64,000 bases of DNA from positions 93,263 to 157,262 of IMG/VR virus record IMGVR_UViG_3300031595_000166. One strand, given 5' to 3'. Below the pieces are notes generated by a model. That model did not search any database, had not been told where the DNA came from, and worked only from the letters and a program-made list of their open reading frames with translations. This document shows positions 6,624-40,471 of this stretch, one piece after another (position 1 is the first letter of the stretch; every line of letters begins with the position of its first letter). The DNA comes from a virus. Made by a program: the position numbers and the translations under genes.

Positions 6624-7103
6624 TTAAATTAGTATAAGCATTTTCCTAATGCGATCCATTGACATCGTAAAATCCATACCAGATAGATCTATTTTAGAAT
6701 GCTTATTGAGAACATTGATTATGTAATCGTTGTAATCACTCATAGCTGTATATCTTGAACCAAGGTATATGTATCCTTGCTCACGATAGAAAAAATCACT
6801 ATCATCGCAGTCATTAGACATCTTCAATTCAGTTTCAGGATCTGCACCATCAATAAAATCAAAAAGAGTGTTGGCTAATGTTTTAAAATACTTTGCGTTG
6901 CTTTCTATATTGTCTGTGCTAAAATGGATGTCGTAAGAATAATAACTATTCACATCCCAAATAAAATGTGAAACGAATGTTTCTCGATATAGAAACTTGG
7001 GACTATCTTCTGGTGATGGAGGAAAAAGATCACGGAATACACCACGACCAAGCTCATACATTGTATGATTGTTCGTATTGACGAGAGTGTATTCGATACC
7101 CAT
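6624..7103 (-). CDS. Hypothetical protein with tail motif
   Basis: 159-aa ORF unrelated to families A and B but ending DRIRKMLILI. Confidence 0.7.
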   Translation of the reverse strand: MGIEYTLVNTNNHTMYELGRGVFRDLFPPSPEDSPKFLYRETFVSHFIWDVNSYYSYDIHFSTDNIESNAKYFKTLANTLFDFIDGADPETELKMSNDCDDSDFFYREQGYIYLGSRYTAMSDYNDYIINVLNKHSKIDLSGMDFTMSMDRIRKMLILI

Positions 7104-7109
7104 TTTAAT

Positions 7110-7412
7110 TTACCTTTTGATTGAACATTTAGGACAATTGCATCCTAATTTATTAGGACCCCAGTAATCGTTAGTTAGTTCTTCACCGCGCTGGATATCT
7201 TTCAATGCCAGCATATCAAAATTGGGATTGATTGGGCGTATGGTTGGCTCACAAGAATGATTGACTCCGCCACTATCACCATATACATGAAAACCAAGCG
7301 ATGGCGTTTTGATTATAGAACCTTTTGGAATGAAGCATTTAGCGAAGATTCCAATGCCATGGATCTTGCTTGGTAAGTTTTCTTTGTAGTGGAGCCAGTT
7401 ATACGTTTTCAT
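7110..7412 (-). CDS. SET-domain protein (putative lysine methyltransferase)
   Basis: SKIHGIGIFA, NHSCEP, DIQRGEELTNDY and a post-SET-like CNCPKC. Confidence 0.85.
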   Translation of the reverse strand: MKTYNWLHYKENLPSKIHGIGIFAKCFIPKGSIIKTPSLGFHVYGDSGGVNHSCEPTIRPINPNFDMLALKDIQRGEELTNDYWGPNKLGCNCPKCSIKR

Positions 7413-7676
7413 TTATTGAAGGAGGAGTAGTTTCTCAATTCGTTGTTCATCTAATACTACCCAGTCATTCAAGTCTATGACACGAACATATCGACTGTCA
7501 TGAAATAATGTCTGAAAATCAGGATTATCAATCCATACGCTAATGGCTGATAGACCTTCTACTGTATGATAGACTGCTATATATTTACCGAATTTATGAT
7601 CGTGGCTGGAATAACTATCACGGGATGACAAGAAACACTTATGGCATATGGGGCATTGTTGTTCTGTCATAGACAT
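7413..7676 (-). CDS. Family A small Zn-binding protein
   Basis: CPIC..HDHKFGKY..LDEQRIEKLLLLQ. Confidence 0.8.
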   Translation of the reverse strand: MSMTEQQCPICHKCFLSSRDSYSSHDHKFGKYIAVYHTVEGLSAISVWIDNPDFQTLFHDSRYVRVIDLNDWVVLDEQRIEKLLLLQ

Positions 7677-9592: not shown

Positions 9593-9841
9593 CTACGGCT
9601 TCCCAAAATCTAATTCACAACACCATACCTCTTCTCGTGTCCACGGCGAAAATACCCCCTTATCCTCGCACGTCGTATCGAGATTTAGTGCAGTGGGATT
9701 AGTGTCTTGTGTGCAGAGCCACTCATCTCGGCAGTCGCTGTAATTGCCGTTGTGCTGTGTGCAGTATGGAATATCTGCTGTCGCTTGAAAACAAGCTGAT
9801 AAAAAGAGAGAAGATACAATTAGCATTATTGCGTGTTTCAT
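9593..9841 (-). CDS. Cys-rich lipoprotein
   Basis: Signal peptide with lipobox LSAC. Confidence 0.65.
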   Translation of the reverse strand: MKHAIMLIVSSLFLSACFQATADIPYCTQHNGNYSDCRDEWLCTQDTNPTALNLDTTCEDKGVFSPWTREEVWCCELDFGKP

Positions 9842-9850
9842 TTTTGATTC

Positions 9851-10756
9851 CTATCGTTGATAAACTCTAACATAATCAATCATCATTTCCTTTGGCAGAA
9901 TGGTTCTACCATCAGGATTGCCAGGCATGTTTCCACCAACCGCTACATTTAGCAGGATGTAAAACGGATGGTCATTAAATACCCACGTAGATCCGCGTGG
10001 CATATCTTGTGGCGTCTTAGTATGATACAGCATGTTGTCTACATAGAACCTAACAACATTAGGTTCCCACTCTACTGAATAGATATGGTAAGTATCTGAT
10101 AGCAAGCTCCTGCGAAGGAGTGGCAACGAAAATGTTCCAGTCATTGGATGACTGCTATGATAACCTGGCCCATGCATTGAACCGTGATTAGTCTTTGGTT
10201 CTCTGCCAATATTTTCCATGATATCGATCTCGCCACAATTTGGCCAGCCAACCTCTTGAATGTTAGCTCCAAGCATCCAGAATGCGCTCCAGATACCTTG
10301 TGTTTTTGGAATCATAATGCGTGCCTCAACACGACCATAGGTAAACTCAAACTTCTTAGCAGTAGTAAGACGAGCGGAAGTATATTGCATTCCCTGATAG
10401 TCTTCGCGTTGAGCGCGAATAGCAAGATGTCCATCACCTGTTAGGTGGGCATTTTCAATGCGGTCAGTGTAGTATTCGAGCTCGTTATTTCCCCAGCCAT
10501 TGCCACCCGTTGCATGATTCCATTTAGATGGATCAGGAGGAGTATTAGCTTGCCCGTTGAAGTCATCCGACCATACAAGTTTCCAAGACGGATCTGCAAT
10601 TTCAAGTTTTCCAGAAGGTGTGAGTAATCCCATTTGAATCTCGTTAGTTTTAGTTTTAGTGTTAGTGTTAGTGTTAGTGTTAGTGTTATATTGATATTGC
10701 GTTGTTGCAATACAACCAGTTAGTAAGGCGAGTAATAGTGTTGATATTTTTTTCAT
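9851..10756 (-). CDS. GH16 beta-1,3(4)-glucanase (laminarinase-like), lipoprotein
   Basis: WSDDF, GGNGWGNNELEYY, YTSARL, GIWSAFW, catalytic EIDIME, IDYVRVYQ; lipobox LTGC. Confidence 0.93.
   Translation of the reverse strand: MKKISTLLLALLTGCIATTQYQYNTNTNTNTNTKTKTNEIQMGLLTPSGKLEIADPSWKLVWSDDFNGQANTPPDPSKWNHATGGNGWGNNELEYYTDRIENAHLTGDGHLAIRAQREDYQGMQYTSARLTTAKKFEFTYGRVEARIMIPKTQGIWSAFWMLGANIQEVGWPNCGEIDIMENIGREPKTNHGSMHGPGYHSSHPMTGTFSLPLLRRSLLSDTYHIYSVEWEPNVVRFYVDNMLYHTKTPQDMPRGSTWVFNDHPFYILLNVAVGGNMPGNPDGRTILPKEMMIDYVRVYQR
10645..10688. repeat. (TTAGTG)n hexamer repeat encoding the TN linker of the GH16
   Basis: Seen directly in the sequence. Confidence 0.85.
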
Positions 10757-12504
10757 CTTAGAATATAATCCGATTTATGATCTTTAGTCCAGCCAGTGAA
10801 GCCATTGGTTAAATTATACTCCGGCTTAGCATACCAAGATATCCAAAACCACCCCAACGGAATATCACCCTTAGTAATAGAGCGCCAGCAACAAGATACG
10901 AATCGCCTGATACGATACAAAATAGCGATTCGCTGAGCGCGTGATGCAATCAACGTACGGGTTGGATAAAATTTAACATTGCACCCATTTAGAAAAATGT
11001 CTTCACACACTCCAACGAATGTTGTCATACTATAAAACACAAACATAAATACATGTGTAATAGGAATAAAAATCGCTGTAAGAAAAAGATGTGTAAATTG
11101 TTCTTTTTTCTCTTCAAAAAACCATACCATGAAAAGATACAAAAATTGCATAGTATATGTAATCATATAGATGAACATCAATCCGTCGAGAACAGACTTG
11201 TCATGCCATGCCAAGAATGGCAGCAACATATAGAACACAACGGCGTGAAACGACCAGTAAACACATCGTAAATAATCACCATAAAAGGGAATGGCAATAC
11301 TCCAATAAAACAAAAACCCCTTGAAGAAACGACCGCTTGTTTCAACGCGGCACGCCATCCAACGTTTTCGTTGCGAGAACAAAGATTTTAGTGTTGGCGG
11401 TGTAAACGTATATACTTTAGCTGATTGCTCAAAACCTTGAATACGTTCAATAAACGAATCAAAAATAAATCTAACAAAAGAATGCAACGGAGTAGGAGGA
11501 GGATCCCAAGACAGTTTACCATTTTTACCCCAATGAGACATTGCAACAAAAACAGCCAAAGAACTGTCATCTGTATTTCCGCAAAGGGCCTGCGGAATTT
11601 CTTCACCATCATATTCTGAAAACTTCGGCAAACTTTTTCCGAACCACCACTTAATATAGTCGCTATACTTGATAGTTTCAAGCCACCCCATAAACTTAGG
11701 AGCAGTGATAATCATATCTGACCACGATACGTAAAGTTGTCCTAGTAGGATTGGCATAGGAAGTATGTTGATATTTTCTTGCATTGCGCTAAAACTAAAG
11801 AAGTTTCGTGCAACGAAAAGATAATTTTGACCAGCAATAGTAAAAAATGAACGCCAGCCCTTCCACATATCGCCTTTATTTATACAAACTTGACCACAAA
11901 CGACTTTTCTATAATTACCAGTTAGCCAATGTTTGGTCATTAATTTTTCAACTAACTTTTGAAGAGAACCATTAGAAACAGTTTCATCAGCGTCAACACT
12001 AAAATAGACCACAGGCATAGACGACAGTTTACCGCTTTTGATGAGATTTTTCATATAATTAATGGCAGCATACACCGCTACTAATTTTCCCTGTCTTACC
12101 TCATTGTAAGAAGTATGCAAGTGAATATTTTTAGAATAGTTGCAAGAATTAACCCAATTCACGAGTTTTTGATATACGGTGGGATTTTCCGAACGACCAT
12201 CAGCAGATGCAATAATATGCAGTTCACCCGGATAATTATTAGTAGCACAGCTATCAACTGCCCTAATAATTTCCTTTAGATCGTATTCGTCTCGAAGAAG
12301 AGATGGAACAATAACCATACCCGATGGAAAATTATTCCGATCTACATCGGATGTAAATGGAAATACTTTATTAAAGAGTTTTTTAAAAGGATACACTACG
12401 TATATAAATTGTGTGTAAAATAATCCAATTAAAAACGCACTAATAATAATCCACCCAAGATTAAATCCATTACCACTGAGTAGTCTTACCGCTGCATTAA
12501 TCAT
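10753..12504 (-). CDS. Processive membrane GT2 polysaccharide synthase (cellulose/hyaluronan/chitin synthase superfamily)
   Basis: D (DGR), DAD, TDD and QRKRW motifs; one N-terminal and several C-terminal TM helices. Confidence 0.85.
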   Translation of the reverse strand: MINAAVRLLSGNGFNLGWIIISAFLIGLFYTQFIYVVYPFKKLFNKVFPFTSDVDRNNFPSGMVIVPSLLRDEYDLKEIIRAVDSCATNNYPGELHIIASADGRSENPTVYQKLVNWVNSCNYSKNIHLHTSYNEVRQGKLVAVYAAINYMKNLIKSGKLSSMPVVYFSVDADETVSNGSLQKLVEKLMTKHWLTGNYRKVVCGQVCINKGDMWKGWRSFFTIAGQNYLFVARNFFSFSAMQENINILPMPILLGQLYVSWSDMIITAPKFMGWLETIKYSDYIKWWFGKSLPKFSEYDGEEIPQALCGNTDDSSLAVFVAMSHWGKNGKLSWDPPPTPLHSFVRFIFDSFIERIQGFEQSAKVYTFTPPTLKSLFSQRKRWMACRVETSGRFFKGFLFYWSIAIPFYGDYLRCVYWSFHAVVFYMLLPFLAWHDKSVLDGLMFIYMITYTMQFLYLFMVWFFEEKKEQFTHLFLTAIFIPITHVFMFVFYSMTTFVGVCEDIFLNGCNVKFYPTRTLIASRAQRIAILYRIRRFVSCCWRSITKGDIPLGWFWISWYAKPEYNLTNGFTGWTKDHKSDYILR

Positions 12505-12533
12505 TTTTCAATCCCTCACGGTTAATAATTAAC

Positions 12534-13619
12534 TTATGGACGAAGACGTAAAATCTTTGATCGCATAGCTTCTGACTTCACATCCAATGTGATATATCTA
12601 CCACGTGATTGACTACTAGACATTGGATCAATCAACACAGTCTCGCCAACAATAATGTCTTTAACCGTGCCTACGTTTTTACAAGCGAACAAGCCCCAGA
12701 TACAATCATATACTGGTGTTCCCGTAGAAGCATTATCTGCTTGCTCGTAAGGAAGAAATGCAACATTCACGTTGCTATTAATAGCTGAAAATACCGGGCG
12801 CGACATTACTTGCTTTTCCAACACCGCAATATCAGCCAATTCAGATTGAACACGTTCCTTTTCAGCCAGTCCAGTCTTCATCAAACCATCAATTTGCAAT
12901 CGTTGAATCTCGATTCTACCCATAAGATCGGCAGCCGTTAGAATAGCTGGCATTGGCATACTATTATTGCCATTCTTATTACCAGTCAACGACTGCAATC
13001 CCAACGTAGCCTGACTAAGCAAAACATCAGTCTGAATCTTGACATGATCGTTGGAGAACAATGCGATCTGAATGTTATCCAACGCTTGTTGTTGCAATTG
13101 ATACTCTGGCAACTTTAGAATACCAGCCTCATAATTCCTCTTGGCTTCCGCAGTCAATGCAGTCTGACGCCCTAGCATCACTTGCAATGCTTTCTTTTGC
13201 TCAGCAAGGGTAGCAATATCGGTTCCACCAATCGCAACCTGTTGATTAGTAGTAGTATCAGTGAATGCCAACGCATGTTCGCCAAGCTCCTTTAGCTTAT
13301 CCAGTTTAATTAGTGCTAGCTCGCCATCTTCCAACTGAGCCTCAATACTCTTTTGCTCGGACAACGCACGACCCTTTTCAAGTTTCACCTCTGCCATTTT
13401 CAATGCAGACTGAACAACCATATCATTGTCTGGCCCAAGTATGAATGGTGCACAAAACCCATCCGTGGCAATATAATAACCTTCACGCGAAGCATATCCG
13501 CATGATCCAACAAGACTGGCGAGGGCTACAAAAGAAAATACCCTAGTTTTCCAGTGCTTGATCTTTGGCTGAACGTTAGTTGCTTCCATTGTCGTTTCAT
13601 TTCCCATTGTAGTATCCAT
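12534..13619 (-). CDS. HlyD-like membrane fusion (periplasmic adaptor) protein
   Basis: N-terminal TM, long coiled coil containing AKRNYEAGILKLPEY, beta-rich C-terminus. Confidence 0.6.
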   Translation of the reverse strand: MDTTMGNETTMEATNVQPKIKHWKTRVFSFVALASLVGSCGYASREGYYIATDGFCAPFILGPDNDMVVQSALKMAEVKLEKGRALSEQKSIEAQLEDGELALIKLDKLKELGEHALAFTDTTTNQQVAIGGTDIATLAEQKKALQVMLGRQTALTAEAKRNYEAGILKLPEYQLQQQALDNIQIALFSNDHVKIQTDVLLSQATLGLQSLTGNKNGNNSMPMPAILTAADLMGRIEIQRLQIDGLMKTGLAEKERVQSELADIAVLEKQVMSRPVFSAINSNVNVAFLPYEQADNASTGTPVYDCIWGLFACKNVGTVKDIIVGETVLIDPMSSSQSRGRYITLDVKSEAMRSKILRLRP

Positions 13620-13621
13620 GA

Positions 13622-14734
13622 TTATTTTCCTTCTCCATAAAACTTGTTGAGTTCAGTTAGCATACCGACAATCAATTCCTTATTGCTTTCCGCATCCATG
13701 ATCTGAAGTTGAATCAATGCATCTGAATTCAATGCAGTCGGAGCATCCAAGTGAGCCTGCAAACTATTATGTGTTGTAGTCAACTGAGCAATCTGTGTTT
13801 CAGTCAATGTCAACTGACGTTTGAGATCATTCATATTAGCAACAATGCTATCACGGAACCTTGTCAACTGACCAGTCAATTCATAACGAGCATTCCTAAG
13901 CTCTCGACTACGAACATCAAGGTATTGGTTCTCATTATGAATCAATGGAATACCACCGAAGTTATACGAGACGCTAACATAACCAGCCCAAGTCCAAGTA
14001 TCACTTGTTCCAGCCATTGGGGGAATGCCACCAATCTCAATATTAGTTTTCCATGCATCGAACCTATGAAGGTTGCTTGCGCGACGTTCAAACTCCATAC
14101 TGCTATTCTGAACGTGAGACATCAATTCTTCAAACGAGTTTTGCTTGGCAACATATTGCTTCGCATGCAATACATCCAACTGACCTTGTGCCTGCAATCG
14201 CTTCAGCTCCAATGAAGTAGCCAATTGTTGTAGCATAGTAATATCAGTAATGGTAGCAACACCAGCGGTCAATCGCTTATTAGCTTGCGACAAAAGATCA
14301 TTAGCATGATCCTTATGCTCATTGAGATATGTCAATGTATTATTGTAGGCAGTTTCCTTGCCAACATCGTTAAGATATTCAAGCGCTTGTTGCGCCTGAA
14401 CCATTGCAACTTGCTGATTGCAATTAGCATCAGCTAGCTTACGAACAAGAGTAGATCTGAATGCATCCAATGGAGACCAAGAAAGAGAAGCTCTTGCCTG
14501 ATATCCATTTTTTGAGATAGACCCGCCAATCGATGCAATACCAGAACTGCTGGGATAGTGAATACCCTCAACAACAATAGCAGGAAACAATAGCAACGAT
14601 GCATCACCAGCCCCACGAGCCCTAATAGCTTCACAATCTTTTGATTGCGTTGCAGTTTGAGCCATGACAGAACTTGCCATCAACACACTTGCCAATCCGA
14701 TTCCTAACGAACTAAATACCTTCTTCATTTGCAC
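13622..14734 (-). CDS. TolC-like outer membrane efflux protein
   Basis: Signal peptide; two beta-hairpin plus long-helix halves (ARASLSWSPLD; AGYVSVSYNFG); RLTAGVATITD. Confidence 0.6.
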   Translation of the reverse strand: MQMKKVFSSLGIGLASVLMASSVMAQTATQSKDCEAIRARGAGDASLLLFPAIVVEGIHYPSSSGIASIGGSISKNGYQARASLSWSPLDAFRSTLVRKLADANCNQQVAMVQAQQALEYLNDVGKETAYNNTLTYLNEHKDHANDLLSQANKRLTAGVATITDITMLQQLATSLELKRLQAQGQLDVLHAKQYVAKQNSFEELMSHVQNSSMEFERRASNLHRFDAWKTNIEIGGIPPMAGTSDTWTWAGYVSVSYNFGGIPLIHNENQYLDVRSRELRNARYELTGQLTRFRDSIVANMNDLKRQLTLTETQIAQLTTTHNSLQAHLDAPTALNSDALIQLQIMDAESNKELIVGMLTELNKFYGEGK

Positions 14735-15075
14735 AAACCTTCCGCAATGTTAGTATTACCTTCAACCACAATACACCCAAGATTACAAGGGAAACCAAGG
14801 TCAGTATGCTCATCACACCAACCATTACTTGCACGAACTTCACCATCAGGGATATCAAAATACGATATACCGATTCCACTATCCCCACCGCCACCACAAT
14901 TCACTACATAGGTGCCAGCATCAGTCTCGCAAGTGATAGTCGTGCCAGTGAAGCCAGCATCGACACTCGCCTCACCGTGCCCGCCATCCGTCGCATTGAC
15001 CCCTGCAACGGTCGTCAAGCAACCAGCAGACTGCACACCAATGGCAGTCGCAAACATCATAATCAATCGATTCAT
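14725..15075 (-). CDS. Cys-rich lipoprotein with DAG/DGG motifs
   Basis: Lipobox SAGC; VDAG and TDAG. Confidence 0.6.
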   Translation of the reverse strand: MNRLIMMFATAIGVQSAGCLTTVAGVNATDGGHGEASVDAGFTGTTITCETDAGTYVVNCGGGGDSGIGISYFDIPDGEVRASNGWCDEHTDLGFPCNLGCIVVEGNTNIAEGLCK

Positions 15076-15081
15076 TGTGAA

Positions 15082-15306
15082 TTATTCTCCGTTTTCAACC
15101 GAATACACTTCAACATTAGCCATCTCACCACGGCTAACAACAAGGTCAAACTCAACACGAGTTCCACGACCAAGATTCAATTCCCTAACCCTATCAGTCG
15201 CTCGCATAACAATGCGTTCGGCATAAGAGCCTTTTGATGGAACCGGACTCACAACAAAATGTGAGCCAACCATGTCTGCAACAATGTGATGATCGTAGGT
15301 ATTCAT
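15082..15306 (-). CDS. Small protein, possible cold-shock-like OB fold
   Basis: GTRVEFDL..ANV resembles the C-terminal half of a CSD; GAGGA RBS. Confidence 0.4.
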   Translation of the reverse strand: MNTYDHHIVADMVGSHFVVSPVPSKGSYAERIVMRATDRVRELNLGRGTRVEFDLVVSRGEMANVEVYSVENGE

Positions 15307-15339: not shown

Positions 15340-15368
15340 ATTATAAGCACCCTGACTTCCCGCGTCAA
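15340..15368 (-). promoter_or_regulatory. Sigma70-type promoter
   Basis: TTGACG-N17-TATAAT, upstream of the run leading into the polysaccharide cluster. Confidence 0.8.
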
Positions 15369-15854: not shown

Positions 15855-16067
15855 TTACTTCAATAGCATCAACATATCTATATACTCTTCATCCAATCGT
15901 TTTGGACTATTCAATGTAATCCTACTATTCTTATCCGAGTAATTTGCTTGTATATAGATACGAACCTCAGTATCCCAATATACGAACACAAGATACTTAC
16001 CAACAGTATGACTGCATGAAGCATAATCATATAGACAGTAATCACAAACTGGACAAGTATAGCTCAT
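15855..16067 (-). CDS. Family A protein, subfamily with SPKRL.EEYID tail
   Basis: CPVC..CSHTVGKY..LDEEYIDMLMLLK. Confidence 0.8.
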   Translation of the reverse strand: MSYTCPVCDYCLYDYASCSHTVGKYLVFVYWDTEVRIYIQANYSDKNSRITLNSPKRLDEEYIDMLMLLK

Positions 16068-16294
16068 TTCAATAACAATAACCCTTCAATACGCTCCTCA
16101 TTCAGCAACGTTAATTTTTTAATACTCAGTAGTAATGGTGAGAGACGTTCTCTTGGATATATGTCAATCAATTCATTGGGAGAATCTACACCATAATAAC
16201 CCACGCCATAATACACATCGTATTTACCATATCTATGAAAACAACACGATGACGATGACAGATACATATGACAATCTGGGCAAGTATAATTCAT
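16064..16294 (-). CDS. Family A small Zn-binding protein
   Basis: CPDC..CFHRYGKY..EERIEGLLLLK. Confidence 0.8.
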   Translation of the reverse strand: MNYTCPDCHMYLSSSSCCFHRYGKYDVYYGVGYYGVDSPNELIDIYPRERLSPLLLSIKKLTLLNEERIEGLLLLK

Positions 16295-31927: not shown

Positions 31928-33496
31928 TTAGTTGAGAAAACTATACGCGGAATTAGTAAAAAACTCCTGAAAATTTGGATCCAAAACTGATTTTGTAAAA
32001 AACTCTTTTGCTTCTTGAAACTTACCAGTGTCAAAACGATCACCAACTTCGCTTTGAATGATGAGCATTTCTTCATCAATAGTTTTGAGTAGCAGTTCTT
32101 TCGTCAATACCGTGTCATCAATTATACAGTTATGATATAGCCAACTCCAAGTAAGCCCAAAATTAATCTGATATGTCGCTGCGTCTTCCATCAAGTTATA
32201 AATTGCTACTGCTCCAATACCACGCAACCATGATTCAAGATACTGAATTGCTACACGGATATTACTACGAAGACCGCTCATAGTTATAGCACCACGATGA
32301 GGTTCCAGCAACTCTTCTTCGGTAATTACATAATTACAATACCGGTCCATCTGATTATTTTGTGGCATCAACCAGTCGAATACTTGGCGGACAACATTAA
32401 CTAACCCAGGATGTGCAATCCAGGCTGCTGATGCTCCAAGTCTTATTTCACGCATCTTGTCTAATCTAACTTTTTCCATTGCTTCTTCGTTAGCAAGCTT
32501 ATCTCCCTTGACTGGGATCTGTGCCGCCATTCCACCGATAGCCATAATACCACGTTTATGACAAGTCTGAACAAGCAATTTACAATAAGCATTTAGAAAC
32601 GCTTTGTCCATCGTAATCTGTGATCTGTCTGGCAAAATCATATCAGAACGGTTAGAAAACTTCTTGATGAACGAATATACATAATCATACCGAGCCATAT
32701 TCATACCGACGATATAATCTTTCAATGCCCATACCACTTCGTCCATCTCAAACGCTAATGTAATCGTCTCAACTAAAACGGTAGCCTTGATCGTTCCAGT
32801 CTTCAATTTGAACTTTTCCTCAGCAAACCAAAATATATCAGACCACAAGCGAGCCTCTTCCCAATTCTCCATCTTCGGAAGATAGAAGTATGCACTCGTT
32901 CCATTATCCATCAACTCTTTGATGTTATGGTAAAAATACAATCCAAAATCCATCAATGCAGCAGGAATAGGTTCACCGTCAATCGTGAAGTGTTTCTCAA
33001 TCATATGCCAGCCGCGAGGACGAACCATCAACACGGCAGTCTTGTCATTCAACTTGTATTCCTTGGCATCCGTCTTGAATGTAATTGTCTTTCTAACCGC
33101 ATCCATCAAGTTGATCTGACCCTGAACAATGTTACCCCATGTAGGAGAATTACTGTCTTCAAGATCTGCCATGAATACATTAGCACCAGAGTTCAACGCA
33201 TTGATGATCATCTTCCTATCAGTCGGACCAGTGATCTCTACTCGTCTATCTTTCAAGTCTGCTGGAATAGGCGCTGCAATGTATCTCGAATTACGAACCC
33301 ATTCCGTATCCTTTCGGAAGTGTGGAAGCAATCCGACATCGAAGAGACTTTGTTTCACATGTCGAGCGGTAAGTAGTTCTTTTACTCTTGGAGAGAATTG
33401 CTGAACCAATGATGCAATGAACTCTATTGCACCGTTTGTGAATACTCGATTGTGTTTTTCTAAGTCTTTGATGTCGATTTTCATAATTGCCTTCAT
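31928..33496 (-). CDS. aceB: Malate synthase A
   Basis: DRRVEITGP, NALNSGA, MADLEDS, VRPRGWH, YFYLPKME, TCHKRG, GGMAAQIP, LMEDAAT. Confidence 0.95.
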   Translation of the reverse strand: MKAIMKIDIKDLEKHNRVFTNGAIEFIASLVQQFSPRVKELLTARHVKQSLFDVGLLPHFRKDTEWVRNSRYIAAPIPADLKDRRVEITGPTDRKMIINALNSGANVFMADLEDSNSPTWGNIVQGQINLMDAVRKTITFKTDAKEYKLNDKTAVLMVRPRGWHMIEKHFTIDGEPIPAALMDFGLYFYHNIKELMDNGTSAYFYLPKMENWEEARLWSDIFWFAEEKFKLKTGTIKATVLVETITLAFEMDEVVWALKDYIVGMNMARYDYVYSFIKKFSNRSDMILPDRSQITMDKAFLNAYCKLLVQTCHKRGIMAIGGMAAQIPVKGDKLANEEAMEKVRLDKMREIRLGASAAWIAHPGLVNVVRQVFDWLMPQNNQMDRYCNYVITEEELLEPHRGAITMSGLRSNIRVAIQYLESWLRGIGAVAIYNLMEDAATYQINFGLTWSWLYHNCIIDDTVLTKELLLKTIDEEMLIIQSEVGDRFDTGKFQEAKEFFTKSVLDPNFQEFFTNSAYSFLN

Positions 33497-35666: not shown

Positions 35667-36143
35667 TTACATCAAGAGTAGAGCAATGGCAAGTTTTTCT
35701 TTTCCATAGATACGTTTGTTATCAAGTTGTGGAATGTAATTGCCATTGATATAGTAGTAAGTTCTACCATCAGCAAACTCAACAGCAGGTCCATCTTTCC
35801 GATGGAGATTGCCATTGAGATACCATTCTTTGGTTCCATTAGTATACTCAACAGCAGGCATCGTCAATCCCGTTTCGGGATTGATGTCTTCCCGATGAAG
35901 TTTGCCATTGAGATACCACCATTTGAATCCATCAGCATACTCAACAGCAGGTCCGTCGTCCCGATGCAGTATATCGTTTTGCCACCATTCTTTATTGCCA
36001 CCGGGATATTCAACCGCATGCAATGTCAGTCCAGTTTCAGGATCAATCTCATCCCTATGAAGACCCCCAAGACCATTATTGAGACGCCAATACTTGGCTC
36101 CAATAAAATGACCAGTAGTTTCAACTATACATGTAGATTGCAT
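35667..36143 (-). CDS. Family B HREDGPA-repeat protein
   Basis: Two PETGLT inserts; ends KLAIALLLM. Confidence 0.85.
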   Translation of the reverse strand: MQSTCIVETTGHFIGAKYWRLNNGLGGLHRDEIDPETGLTLHAVEYPGGNKEWWQNDILHRDDGPAVEYADGFKWWYLNGKLHREDINPETGLTMPAVEYTNGTKEWYLNGNLHRKDGPAVEFADGRTYYYINGNYIPQLDNKRIYGKEKLAIALLLM

Positions 36144-36178
36144 GAACTCTCTTATTGCGAAACGCTGACATCGAAAGT

Positions 36179-36517
36179 CTAATTGATATACCAAGCGTGA
36201 ATAAAATACCCAATAACCAATGCTCCACAGCATGCAATAACTTCACGAAGAAGATTTCTTAGGGTTGATTCAAGGAATGAACTACTACTATCATTACTTC
36301 TTGATGTAAGACCCCATGTGAATAACATGACAAGTAGCATCAGTCCGAATGCTATCGCCAACGGAATACGATTAACATTCGCTGCAACAACAACGAACCA
36401 GTTCCATAACTGCATTACAGCGAATGCTCGTACGAATAACACACCGAAAAACAATGCAAGTCCAATGTTGAACCTGTAAAACTTATCAATAAATGAGCTT
36501 AGTTTACCATATAACAT
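36179..36517 (-). CDS. Membrane protein
   Basis: Three hydrophobic segments; LWNWFV. Confidence 0.6.
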   Translation of the reverse strand: MLYGKLSSFIDKFYRFNIGLALFFGVLFVRAFAVMQLWNWFVVVAANVNRIPLAIAFGLMLLVMLFTWGLTSRSNDSSSSFLESTLRNLLREVIACCGALVIGYFIHAWYIN

Positions 36518-36528
36518 TTGCTTATTCT

Positions 36529-36885
36529 TTATTGCGAAACGCTGACATCGAATGCATCATTGACATTGCCAAAATTGACAAGCCACAACTTGTAAGTATC
36601 ATTGCTTGTGGCATAAAATCCGAACGAACATTTGTTCGCATTGTCCTCTTGAAGATACTTGACAACATATCCCTGACCGTTTGGATTCTTTTGTAGCAGA
36701 GCGCAATCAATATCTCCACCAGCAGATAGACCACGAACATTGATGCTGTAATAATAACCAGCCTTTGCTTGTGGAAGAACAATGATCTTATCATGATCAG
36801 CAGGAATGTTTCCTGCAACGAATGCAACACGCGAAGGTGAATACATTGAACCGAGAGCAAGAGCGACAATGAATGCGTTGAACAT
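36529..36885 (-). CDS. Secreted beta-sandwich protein (PPC-like)
   Basis: Signal peptide; GDIDC..L, EDNANKC, TYKLWLVN. Confidence 0.55.
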   Translation of the reverse strand: MFNAFIVALALGSMYSPSRVAFVAGNIPADHDKIIVLPQAKAGYYYSINVRGLSAGGDIDCALLQKNPNGQGYVVKYLQEDNANKCSFGFYATSNDTYKLWLVNFGNVNDAFDVSVSQ

Positions 36886-37244
36886 TTGAGTTTATCCTTT
36901 GATTTGTGCTTTTAGTTCTTCAATTTGTTTGAGTAGATCGTCAATGACTTTGATAGCAGACTTACCGCAACCAAGACAATCGCCAGTATGGCGGTTCATG
37001 CATTCCATCCGAGCGTGCTTGCAATTAGTTGCCATTACTTACGCCATTTAGAATCCAATGGAGGCGGAACATATGTCTCTTCATGTTCAACAATTTGTTT
37101 GATCCATTGACACGCTTCGTCAAGCGTTAGTCCTGCTTGCTCGAATACAAGCACGTTATCCTTTTTTACGAACAACCATATTCCGTGATTGCCATGAATA
37201 AAAGAAGTTTCGTAGTGATGTTTTAGGTTCTTCATGGTGAGTAT

Positions 37245-37273
37245 AATATAAGCACGATCGCGCCGCTTGTCAA
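37245..37273 (-). promoter_or_regulatory. Sigma70-type promoter
   Basis: TTGACA-N17-TATATT. Confidence 0.8.
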
Positions 37274-37710
37274 GATGTAGGTAGATGTCGCATAATCATC
37301 CACACCACTGGCAACAAGCAGGTGATATGTGAGATCTGATCTATTGCAATCATCAATATCTTGCCAAGAGGAGTAGATACGAATTGAATGAAACCACCAA
37401 CTGGATCCTCATTCATTTCTGGCGGGCGACGAATGTATTTCGCCCATAAAAATACCAAGTGGTATGTATCCAGATAGAAGTGAGAGAAGAATAGGATACT
37501 AATGCTTGCAAGAAACTCGAACGGACTTACTGTAAGAGCCAACAATGGAACGAAACCAAGCGTATAGATTGCACAATGCTTCGCTCTAATAGCACTGTGA
37601 TTGTGTTTAACCATTGCTTCCGCATGAGATTGGAACAACCAATCAGTGAAGAAGTGTATGAAGATTAGGATTGTTAGAATGCCACCGAAGTTTGCGAGAT
37701 ATTGAATCAT
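37270..37710 (-). CDS. DUF3307-like membrane protein
   Basis: HFFTDWLFQ, H..IY, SHFYLD, DQISH. Confidence 0.75.
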   Translation of the reverse strand: MIQYLANFGGILTILIFIHFFTDWLFQSHAEAMVKHNHSAIRAKHCAIYTLGFVPLLALTVSPFEFLASISILFFSHFYLDTYHLVFLWAKYIRRPPEMNEDPVGGFIQFVSTPLGKILMIAIDQISHITCLLPVVWMIMRHLPTS

Positions 37711-38919: not shown

Positions 38920-40137
38920 TTAGAATTGATGCGCTTCGGTGCTGTTGGCTAGGGCGGCAGTATTCCCGTGCCCATCAACAATCTGTTGAATGTCATCCCA
39001 GTATCCCGTTCCTACGAACGACTGATGTTTCACCGCAGTATAACCTTTGGTTGCTTGCCAGTCAAGCGCTTCTTGTTGAAGACGAACGAACGCTGTCATT
39101 CCTTCTGTTTGATATGCGTTAGCAAGTTTATACGATGATAGGTTGTTAGAATGAAAACTTGCAAGCGTTATGAAGTTAAAACGAAAACCTAACTCACCAA
39201 GTTTATCCTGAAACTCCGCAATCTCTTTATCAGATAGATGGCGTTTCCAGTTGAATGAAGGACTGCAATTATAAAATAGCAACTTGTCCTTAGCATGCTC
39301 ATGAACACCATGAGCGAATGCTGCCGCTTCACCTAAATCTGGCTTATCCGTTTCCATCCAAACTGCGTCGGATACACTTGCAAAACTCAACGCACGAGCA
39401 ACACTTCGCTCAACTGGATCACCTTTCAGTTCATAAAATCCATCATCCGTTCTCTTATCGAAGTTGATGAACCTATGATCTTGTGGGTCAGCGTCCGACA
39501 TAACATATTTCGATCCATTGATGTCTGTTCTGGCTACAATTAGAACCGGAACATTACACACATCGCTTGCAAGTCTCGCGCTAATCAATCGTTTTACATG
39601 CGCGCTTGTTGGAACAACGCAGCGTCCGCTCATATGTCCGCACTTTTTTTCATGCAGATCTTCAATATGAAGGCACGATGCTCCGCTCTCAATCATGTTG
39701 CGCATAAGCAAGTAGGTATTCTTTATAGTCGAAAATCCATTATCCATATCTGCAATGATAGGAACAAGCCAATTCCTCTTTGCTCCACCAGATGAATGCT
39801 CATATCGATCGGCAGCAAGCAATGCTGAGTTGAGTTCTTTTACCAAGTTAGGAACGCTCTCAGAATTATATAAGCCCATATCTGGCAATAACTGACGAGC
39901 ACTTGTCTGCCAACCACTACAATATAGTGTAGTGGCACCTGCTAACACCATCTCTATTGCTTGATTACCATCCATGCATCCTAATGATCGAAGCGGATTA
40001 GGATCAGTGTTAAAAAGATCCCATAGTCGATTGGATCCAAGGCGGGATATCGTATAATCAATATTATAACTACCACGAAGACGCTTTACATCCTCTGGTG
40101 AATAAGCACGGAATGGATTTGGCTCATACTTTGGCAT
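38920..40137 (-). CDS. aceA: Isocitrate lyase
   Basis: Y.SGWQ, PIIAD, HIED, catalytic KKCGH, ARTD, YNCSPSFNW, FITLA, VGTGY.D. Confidence 0.95.
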   Translation of the reverse strand: MPKYEPNPFRAYSPEDVKRLRGSYNIDYTISRLGSNRLWDLFNTDPNPLRSLGCMDGNQAIEMVLAGATTLYCSGWQTSARQLLPDMGLYNSESVPNLVKELNSALLAADRYEHSSGGAKRNWLVPIIADMDNGFSTIKNTYLLMRNMIESGASCLHIEDLHEKKCGHMSGRCVVPTSAHVKRLISARLASDVCNVPVLIVARTDINGSKYVMSDADPQDHRFINFDKRTDDGFYELKGDPVERSVARALSFASVSDAVWMETDKPDLGEAAAFAHGVHEHAKDKLLFYNCSPSFNWKRHLSDKEIAEFQDKLGELGFRFNFITLASFHSNNLSSYKLANAYQTEGMTAFVRLQQEALDWQATKGYTAVKHQSFVGTGYWDDIQQIVDGHGNTAALANSTEAHQF

Positions 40138-40471
40138 CTTACAACTCCCTTTATTCCTGAGGTTCTTCCTCATCATCTTCATGGACTTCTTTTACACAAC
40201 AATCTTTACTACCACAACTATCACAATAATGATTAGTATAATCAGGGTGATTGTAATTCCAGATTATCTTTCCAATTACAATTGGAATAATACCAATCAA
40301 CCACAGCATAACGATTGTCATTTCAAACAATCTTCCATATTCCGGCGCCTTGTAATACACCAATCCAGCCATCCAGAATACAATCAATGTCATCATCACT
40401 CTGTGTCTTACGAGGATATTCTTTCTAAGCCAGACATCAACGGGGTATTCTTGCCGCATATTTTGCCTATA

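Follow-up and report, generated by a model that had tools for sequence, protein, structure and literature searches.

This work concerns four genes in a 64,000-nucleotide stretch of DNA (hereafter the window), which comprises bases 93263-157262 of a 157,262-bp IMG/VR virus record (IMGVR_UViG_3300031595_000166). On the minus strand, at 9851-14728, the four open reading frames (ORFs) are co-oriented and packed in an operon-like manner, and we consider it fairly probable that they encode a self-contained tripartite machine for the synthase-dependent synthesis and export of a polysaccharide, carried by a huge phage of a diderm host. Beginning with the first gene of the set, the features are as follows:

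13622..14728, minus strand: predicted outer-membrane factor (OMF) with TolC fold, 368 aa (AlphaFold2 (AF2) and Foldseek)
12534..13619, minus strand: predicted periplasmic adaptor with membrane fusion protein (MFP) architecture of the EmrA/HlyD type (AF2 and Foldseek)
10753..12504, minus strand: putative membrane glycosyltransferase of family 2 (GT2), processive synthase type, 583 aa (motifs, hydropathy and ESM Atlas)
9851..10756, minus strand: predicted laminarinase-type endo-beta-1,3-glucanase of glycoside hydrolase family 16 (GH16), a lipoprotein (Pfam PF00722 and PDB 2hyk)

The genes are tightly spaced, with gaps of 2 nt between channel and adaptor and 29 nt between adaptor and GT2, a 4-nt overlap between GT2 and GH16, and an ATGA in which the stop codon of an upstream 116-aa ORF overlaps the ATG of the channel gene. 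A preliminary description, made from the nucleotide sequence, had placed four adjacent, co-oriented genes here, and the ORFs were found where it put them, all on the minus strand. Its coordinates stand except for the start of the channel gene, where ATG 14728 is preferred over GTG 14734; this ATG is the most likely start, since it yields both the 368-aa form found in the databases (P0007) and the overlap with the upstream ORF. The four-gene set as such is confirmed, and chance is excluded because the gene order is kept in independent contigs and genomes. The earlier interpretation as an exopolysaccharide machine is supported as well, with the product, the benefit to the phage and, as far as proof by virion genes is concerned, the viral identity of the carrier being what we infer.

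The channel protein combines a Sec signal peptide with four beta-strands and long helical hairpins that form two structural repeats. Its AF2 model, computed with the family alignment, reached a mean predicted local distance difference test score (pLDDT) of 92.5 and a predicted template modelling score (pTM) of 0.83, and DSSP assigned strands to residues 52-59, 78-86, 228-237 and 248-257, with helices of 30-67 residues after each pair. An OMF protomer likewise consists of four beta-strands, which contribute to a 12-stranded trimeric barrel, and long antiparallel helices in two structural repeats. When the model was compared with the PDB by Foldseek, ranks 1-39 were all members of the TolC family (E 3e-11 to 4e-4), including TolC, ST50, VceC, CusC, OprM, OprN, CmeC and MtrE, followed by a sharp drop in score. 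On the strength of the predicted structure, we assign the channel to the TolC-fold OMFs with high confidence. Judged by sequence, it is a distant sister family and not a canonical OEP member: an exhaustive profile search yielded 434 representatives of the family, nearly all of 350-380 aa, Pfam OEP (PF02321) was reached by five of 114 family members (best E 1.3e-5), and sequence and profile searches of the PDB returned nothing usable. Four residues, Cys34, Cys105, P51 and R81, are invariant across the 114 family members. A disulphide between the two cysteines is probable and would fasten the N-terminal helix to the first of the long helices; we are not aware of such a bond in canonical TolC. 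Two much longer family members, P0085 (1117 aa) and P0137 (605 aa), end in the channel domain, which occupies residues 777-1112 and 360-596, respectively.

For the adaptor, AF2 predicted a helix at 23-52, a strand at 54-61, helices at 66-164, 170-212 and 224-272, and six strands within 284-359, which corresponds to an N-terminal membrane helix, one strand, an alpha-hairpin of ~200 residues and a C-terminal beta domain. MFPs share this plan, with a membrane anchor and a long hairpin whose flanking segments make up the beta domains. Foldseek returned EmrA first (1e-7), then MacA, EmrAB-TolC, HlyD and LipC, and the alignments with EmrA and MacA span residues 49-361 of the model, hairpin plus beta domain. 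Of the adaptor alignments listed, the ones that extend from about residue 50 as far as the C-terminus and include both of these parts are with MFPs, and in the ESM Atlas, which provides an independent model, the named structural neighbors outside the adaptor's own family all belong to MFP families. Sequence and profile searches of the PDB gave nothing relevant. In the loci examined, the adaptor gene is always flanked by the genes for the channel and the GT2. Taken as modelled, the protein has an MFP-type architecture of the EmrA/HlyD type. Both envelope proteins had been named by eye in the preliminary description: the TolC call passed the fold test proposed there, with AF2 and Foldseek giving an OMF fold, and the HlyD call is borne out by AF2, Foldseek and the ESM Atlas neighbors.

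In the GT2, D102, D171/D173, D312-D313 and Q378-R379-x-R381-W382 are invariant in 12 phage-like and bacterial homologues, and T311 of the TDD motif is invariant in the six phage-like ones. The hydropathy profile shows hydrophobic helices at 19-37, 414-432, 442-460 and 473-500, i.e., one N-terminal (the N-terminus being encoded at 12344-12504) and at least three C-terminal ones, in keeping with processive synthases, whose GT-A domain lies between membrane helices capable of forming a translocation pore. Six of 12 family members reached the Pfam GT2 models (E 4e-7 to 7e-6), and the NCBIfam matches, to PgaC, NodC and HpnB, are weak and far under the cut-offs. While AF2 predictions were made for the channel and the adaptor, the fold of the GT2 rests on its ESM Atlas model, of which ~400 residues align to GT2 and chitin-synthase-like families with TM-scores of 0.59-0.64. 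By sequence, the enzyme is a divergent GT2 of the processive type, whose kinship with cellulose synthases is not demonstrable. Its C-terminal tail of ~60 residues (within 10753-10935) is Arg/Trp-rich, cytosolic and conserved, with R525, R531, R534, R541, G546, D547, W554 and W572 invariant. No PilZ match was found in this tail, and there is no recognizable domain for cyclic di-GMP (c-di-GMP); the tail may be a regulatory or nucleotide-binding module.

The GH16 protein scored 86.6 bits against Pfam PF00722 (cut-off 22; E 1.8e-24). In the PDB, it matched the beta-1,3-glucanase 2hyk with E 6e-84 and ~60% identity across 243 aligned residues, the catalytic block GEIDIMEN being identical, followed by 3atg (1e-75) and other beta-1,3-glucanases and laminarinases down to 1e-53. 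Its N-terminus comprises a signal peptide, an LTGC lipobox and an Asn/Thr-rich linker. The protein is predicted to be a laminarinase-type endo-beta-1,3-glucanase. The motifs by which both enzymes had been recognized in the preliminary description are borne out: of D, DxD, TDD and QRKRW, the core D, DxD, DD and QRxRW is invariant over the 12 GT2 homologues, and the EIDIME lipoprotein exceeds the Pfam cut-off, shares its motif with 2hyk and has a lipobox.

The GT2 might instead make a short oligosaccharide or glycolipid, of a NodC-like or ceramide/hopanoid type, which would be exported as a signal or surface lipid, while the GH16 would act on foreign glucans such as those of fungal or prey walls. 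The weak NodC and HpnB matches, which lie in the N-terminal half of the GT2, an Atlas feature neighbor with the automatic name 'putative ceramide glucosyltransferase', and the lack of an adjacent GH16 in most of the bacterial loci that carry the channel, adaptor and GT2 genes all point in this direction. However, the invariant QRxRW and TDD motifs and the bundled membrane helices at the C-terminus are what one typically sees in synthases that act processively and form a channel. The GT2 is, moreover, translationally coupled to the GH16, and where a TolC-type duct is known to work with a GT2, the product described to date is a polymer (PMC13438883). We regard such a small product as very improbable.

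Several results at the level of the single proteins weigh against an exporter of a polysaccharide. The GT2 reached 17.9 bits with Pfam Glyco_tranf_2_3, below the cut-off of 27, found no match in sequence and profile searches of the PDB, and gave a probability of 1%, which is not significant, when its profile was compared with E. coli BcsA by hhalign. The channel of the window has no match in Pfam, NCBIfam or PHROGs, and the same is true for the adaptor, of whose family none of 14 members reached the HlyD, Biotin_lipoyl or RND-MFP Pfam models at E <= 0.05. The AF2 model of the adaptor is moderate (pLDDT 74, pTM 0.44), and in VIA-align, coiled coils of Smc and chemoreceptors (Z 12.3) tie with MacA, HlyD, LipC and EmrA (Z 11.0-11.9). 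The GH16 shares 29% identity with the GH16 beside a bacterial triad of channel, adaptor and GT2 genes (locus L011) and is far nearer to actinobacterial laminarinases; it may have joined the cluster separately and serve a different function.

The record that carries the operon holds ~295 ORFs, mostly tiny and nearly all on one strand, at a coding density of 89%, and three tRNAs lie in the window. Its genes include an NAD-dependent ligase, a Dda-like helicase, HNH endonucleases, an RnlA-type RNA ligase (phrog_562, 9e-46), a nicotinamide adenine dinucleotide (NAD) salvage pair of NAMPT and NMNAT/Nudix, a gltX-like glutamyl-tRNA synthetase, and a phrog_2141 protein (8e-80), the relatives of which occur in 730 phage records including those of jumbo phages. 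In addition, mini-proteins with a C-terminal tag of the form ...LLLL(K/Q) are encoded between a point 84 kb ahead of the window and one 47 kb inside it; the cluster is flanked by two of them, at 7413-7676 and 16064-16294, which are the nearest. The alternative that the replicon is cellular, a plasmid or an extrachromosomal fragment of a low-GC diderm, and the cluster an ordinary bacterial exopolysaccharide operon, draws on the 'provirus' label of the record in IMG/VR, on five large ORFs without a PHROG or Pfam match, two of which were searched further and gave no phage match, and on genes of a cellular metabolic type, namely those for malate synthase and isocitrate lyase as well as the gltX-like one. 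Neither Terminase_6N nor Gp23 (terminase and major capsid protein) was found on the 157-kb fragment, for which CheckV estimates a completeness of 32% against viral references; this absence is among the points for the cellular alternative, but on a fragment of such completeness it carries no proof. On the other side stand the gene content and architecture listed above, the CheckV estimate itself, which is made against viral references, the tagged families across the whole record, and a uniform composition in which a host-like block is absent. We consider the cellular alternative unlikely, and the carrier very probably a virus of the huge-phage type. This agrees with the preliminary description, which had called the operon probably phage-encoded and named a cellular contig as a refutation; the virus record, the tRNAs, the RnlA-type ligase, NAMPT/NMNAT and the tagged mini-proteins that flank the cluster all fit.

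Some further genes of the record deserve mention. The RnlA-type RNA ligase, the NAMPT and NMNAT/Nudix pair and the gltX-like gene lie in its left part, at record positions 70943-72016 (L008), 83263-85732 (L009) and 36114-37538 (L006), respectively. Malate synthase (MS_TIM-barrel, 2e-97; 31928-33496, minus strand) and isocitrate lyase (ICL, 1.3e-80; 38920-40182, minus strand) are encoded 5 kb apart, and by annotation they would constitute a complete glyoxylate shunt on a phage record. A glycosyltransferase of the GT1 family (Glycos_transf_1, 1.8e-8) is encoded on the plus strand at record positions 90444-91697 (L009:10444-11697), 12 kb upstream of the operon, as another gene of the record with a role in sugar handling.

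A word-based search of 5.8 billion proteins found only five relatives of the GT2, which are 45-67% identical and rich in residues of the low-GC type. For two of the GT2 homologues, P0002 and P0006 (on contigs of 140 kb and 27 kb), the phage origin rests on this low-GC-type amino-acid make-up alone. In the metagenome contigs L002 and L003, the four genes all recur in unchanged order, with identities of 55-65% and a GC content of 0.37-0.39. Downstream of the cluster, L002 continues with homologues of the window genes at 6624-7103 (70% at the amino-acid level), which bears the C-terminal tag of the lineage, and at 7110-7412 (95%). With the four genes and these shared flanking genes, L002 represents a syntenic piece of a sister phage. 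The gene at 7110-7412 (minus strand) encodes a 100-aa SET-domain protein (Pfam SET, 2.9e-10), and its 95% identity to L002 is far above that of the neighboring genes.

The GC content of the cluster is 0.40, and that at third codon positions (GC3) is 0.32-0.38, compared with 0.38 and 0.34 for the record and a GC content of 0.58-0.68 in the bacterial loci. When the window is compared with L002, nonsynonymous divergence (pN) amounts to 0.23-0.30 and synonymous divergence (pS) to 0.68-0.76 across the four genes, the latter being saturated; the four genes are under purifying selection. From these ratios and the record-like GC and GC3, it follows that the genes are long-resident and maintained and are no recent graft or assembly artefact. 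A host flank or an assembly chimera was also considered as the source of the cluster and was rejected on account of the composition, the tagged genes on both sides and the synteny with L002.

Searches of reference collections returned no further viral carrier. Neither the GT2 nor the channel had a tblastn match in 50,697 GenBank phages, and the GT2 had none in 72,556 plasmids (E <= 0.01), a collection not checked for the replicon that carries bgsBA. A TolC fold is absent from the viral structures in BFVD (best E 0.04, TM 0.20), and in PHROGs no family was found for GT2, adaptor or channel. A pattern scan with the close GT2 alignment gave no further copy in IMG/VR and none in 185,579 species genomes; for the channel, broad alignments were too diverse for a pattern, and an alignment of five sequences worked.

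The preliminary description had proposed a search for the cluster in bacterial genomes, and this revealed what it did not know, namely that the three core genes are syntenic in Myxococcota. The order OMF-MFP-GT2 is kept in the loci L010, L011 (two copies), L014 and L015, MFP and GT2 are adjacent in L019-L026, and the metagenome-assembled genomes (MAGs) with the triad are labelled Polyangiaceae, Myxococcales, 'delta proteobacterium' and 'Proteobacteria'. The triad is rare in this phylum: of 401 genomes sampled, six contain the GT2, and the adaptor gene precedes it in every case that has flanking sequence. The GT2s of the bacterial triads are 30-40% identical to that of the phage, and their loci have 58-68% GC. 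The same triad occurs in L013, from an unpublished genome, which was left out of the GT2 tree and on which no conclusion rests. A published description of the Myxococcota triad was not found in our literature search, which did not cover all journals. In the GT2 phylogeny, inferred by maximum likelihood, the eight phage-like, low-GC sequences cluster together with a support of 100/100, and midpoint rooting places this group beside a Polyangiaceae/Myxococcales clade, within the bacterial diversity. The simplest reading, with the root not established, would be a single capture of the triad from Myxococcota-like bacteria. The host must be diderm, given the outer-membrane channel and the lipoproteins, and the source of the genes suggests a host among the Myxococcota; the 38% GC of the record, as compared with high-GC Myxococcota, calls for caution and speaks against this assignment. 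Some of the bacteria carry the triad two or three times. In L011, from a Myxococcales MAG, a GH16 and a gene of the heparinase II/III-like kind come before two tandem triads, and genome G375 (L019, L024 and L026) has three GT2 copies, two of them identical, ~14 kb apart and in opposite orientation.

With regard to the product, the laminarinase character of the GH16 favors beta-1,3 linkages, and a glucan that contains them, either curdlan-like or mixed-linkage, is most likely from the sequence data. The same machine could, however, make an acidic or N-acetylated polymer (cellubiuronic-acid-like, hyaluronan-like, or like chitin or poly-N-acetylglucosamine), in which case the GH16 would be specific for that polymer or an unrelated passenger. 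In both sister fragments, a gene resembling uridine diphosphate (UDP)-glucose 6-dehydrogenase directly follows the GH16 (L002:5082-6083 and L003:4662-5045), and has and cps3 operons are classically recognized by just such a pairing of synthase and UDP-glucose dehydrogenase. The sister gene product has 333 aa with the N-terminal and central UDPG_MGDP_dh domains, matches PDB 4a7p (7e-29) and keeps the GGSC motif of the catalytic Cys. Among the bacterial loci, L014 has a full gene of the UDP-glucose-dehydrogenase family and a polysaccharide deacetylase after the GT2, and L011 has the heparinase II/III-like lyase beside its triads. The weak matches and structural neighbors of the GT2 (PgaC, NodC, chitin-synthase-like) are likewise not cellulose synthases. 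Such dehydrogenase and deacetylase neighbors count against a neutral glucan, as a polymer with acidic or N-acetylated sugars would suit them better. On the other hand, the dehydrogenase-like gene is truncated, lacks the C-terminal UDP-binding domain and has no copy on the 157-kb record. The GH16, for its part, is ~60% identical to a solved beta-1,3-glucanase with a common catalytic block, shows translational coupling with the synthase and has been retained in each of the three phage loci. Among the bacterial triad loci, only L011 has an adjacent GH16, a divergent one. A polymer of this other kind is a possibility to be kept in mind, albeit a doubtful one, and the beta-1,3-containing glucan remains our preferred product.

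Around the four genes, the same strand holds the following features:

15340..15368, minus strand: sigma-70-like promoter candidate, TTGACG, 17-nt spacer, TATAAT (consensus match 11/12)
15082..15306, minus strand: 74-aa ORF, the first past the promoter candidate, without Pfam match
14725..15075, minus strand: 116-aa ORF with hydrophobic N-terminus and Cys/Gly-rich body, without Pfam or PHROG match
9593..9841, minus strand: 82-aa Cys-rich ORF, probable lipoprotein (LSAC lipobox), 9 nt past the GH16

The promoter candidate lies directly downstream of tRNA-Asn and tRNA-Cys and is a possible start of the operon. An Rfam scan around the operon found these two tRNAs only, and no riboswitches or further elements. 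The 116-aa protein is probably secreted, and the 82-aa ORF has a homologue near the cluster in L002. These Cys-rich exported small proteins bracket the operon on both sides and could be extra components or unrelated.

The mechanism we propose builds on folds, motifs, synteny, selection and distribution, all of which were observed. The GT2 in the inner membrane would polymerize a UDP-sugar and thread the growing chain through its own membrane pore, from where the membrane-anchored adaptor, with its very long alpha-hairpin, would span the periplasm and the dedicated TolC-fold channel would lead the chain out across the outer membrane. Because its gene is coupled in translation to that of the synthase, the GH16 lipoprotein would be made along with it and trim or release the polymer in the periplasm. 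Other synthase systems have periplasmic hydrolases or lyases as well, such as BcsZ, AlgL and PslG. Most likely taken once from Myxococcota-like bacteria and since kept under selection, the triad would serve to coat or embed the infected cell in polymer during infection. We infer the assembly of the complex, the identity of the polymer and the advantage for the phage, which may lie in receptor masking, superinfection exclusion, aggregation or protection.

Among known systems, the preliminary description had pointed to BgsA/BgsB of Sinorhizobium and to cyanobacterial cellulose, and both comparisons are apt (PMC13438883). For S. meliloti, BgsA-BgsB-TolC has been proposed as a tripartite export route for a mixed-linkage beta-1,3/1,4-glucan (PMC13438883, PMC5567048). 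It shares with the phage operon an inner-membrane GT2, a HlyD-type MFP encoded next to it and a channel of the TolC type, and its polymer has beta-1,3 linkages, which would fit the GH16. In contrast, the rhizobial channel is a housekeeping TolC encoded elsewhere, whereas the phage has a dedicated, compact channel of 368 aa as the first gene of its triad; moreover, the phage set adds the GH16 lipoprotein, its adaptor has no HlyD Pfam match, its synthase lacks a recognizable c-di-GMP domain, and its carrier is a phage. In the cyanobacterial Xcs system, as far as it is outlined in the articles citing it, a synthase, a HlyD-like protein and TolC serve cellulose (Maeda et al. 2018, via PMC13438883 and PMC12430437). 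By the same accounts, it resembles the phage set in these three components plus a glucanase-like one, and differs in that its genes are scattered, its synthase is a cellulose synthase and its hydrolase does not belong to GH16. The Myxococcota triads are true homologues of the three core genes in the same order and the probable source, but they are chromosomal and of high GC, with a deacetylase, a UDP-sugar dehydrogenase and a heparinase-like lyase as neighbors.

Chloroviruses encode membrane GT2s that synthesize hyaluronan or chitin, together with UDP-glucose dehydrogenase, and the infected cell extrudes a polysaccharide coat (PMC5408694). As in the phage, the synthase is a membrane GT2 encoded by a large DNA virus, but the host is a eukaryote with a single membrane, for which an adaptor and an outer-membrane channel are not needed, and the likeness is at the level of the GT2 superfamily. 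By analogy, chloroviruses may offer the nearest precedent for the use of the polymer to the phage. A phage-encoded system of this kind was not found in the literature, of which not all journals were covered. Phages change the surface sugars of their hosts with single enzymes. Tripartite synthase-dependent export in itself is known; new here are a dedicated channel and adaptor that lie beyond current sequence models, and a virus as the carrier.

We see about even chances that a huge phage infecting diderm soil bacteria, probably Myxococcota, brings a complete trans-envelope nanomachine with its own TolC-type channel, through which the host is made to extrude a coat. If the interpretation is true, it would also bring to light a family of Myxococcota systems devoted to tripartite polysaccharide export, for which our literature search gave no published account and the channels and adaptors of which escape Pfam models. 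The four genes would then be a compact and self-sufficient cassette for a polymer of the beta-glucan type and of interest for heterologous production, as the engineering of mixed-linkage glucan at present needs a separate supply of tolC (PMC13438883). The system would likewise be the counterpart, in a bacterial virus, of hyaluronan and chitin production by chloroviruses, and its channel the first viral outer-membrane factor. It would mean that a virus installs a new envelope-spanning secretion route and wraps the infected cell in polymer, which would bear on superinfection exclusion, on aggregation in soil and on the protection of cells by huge phages with long latency.

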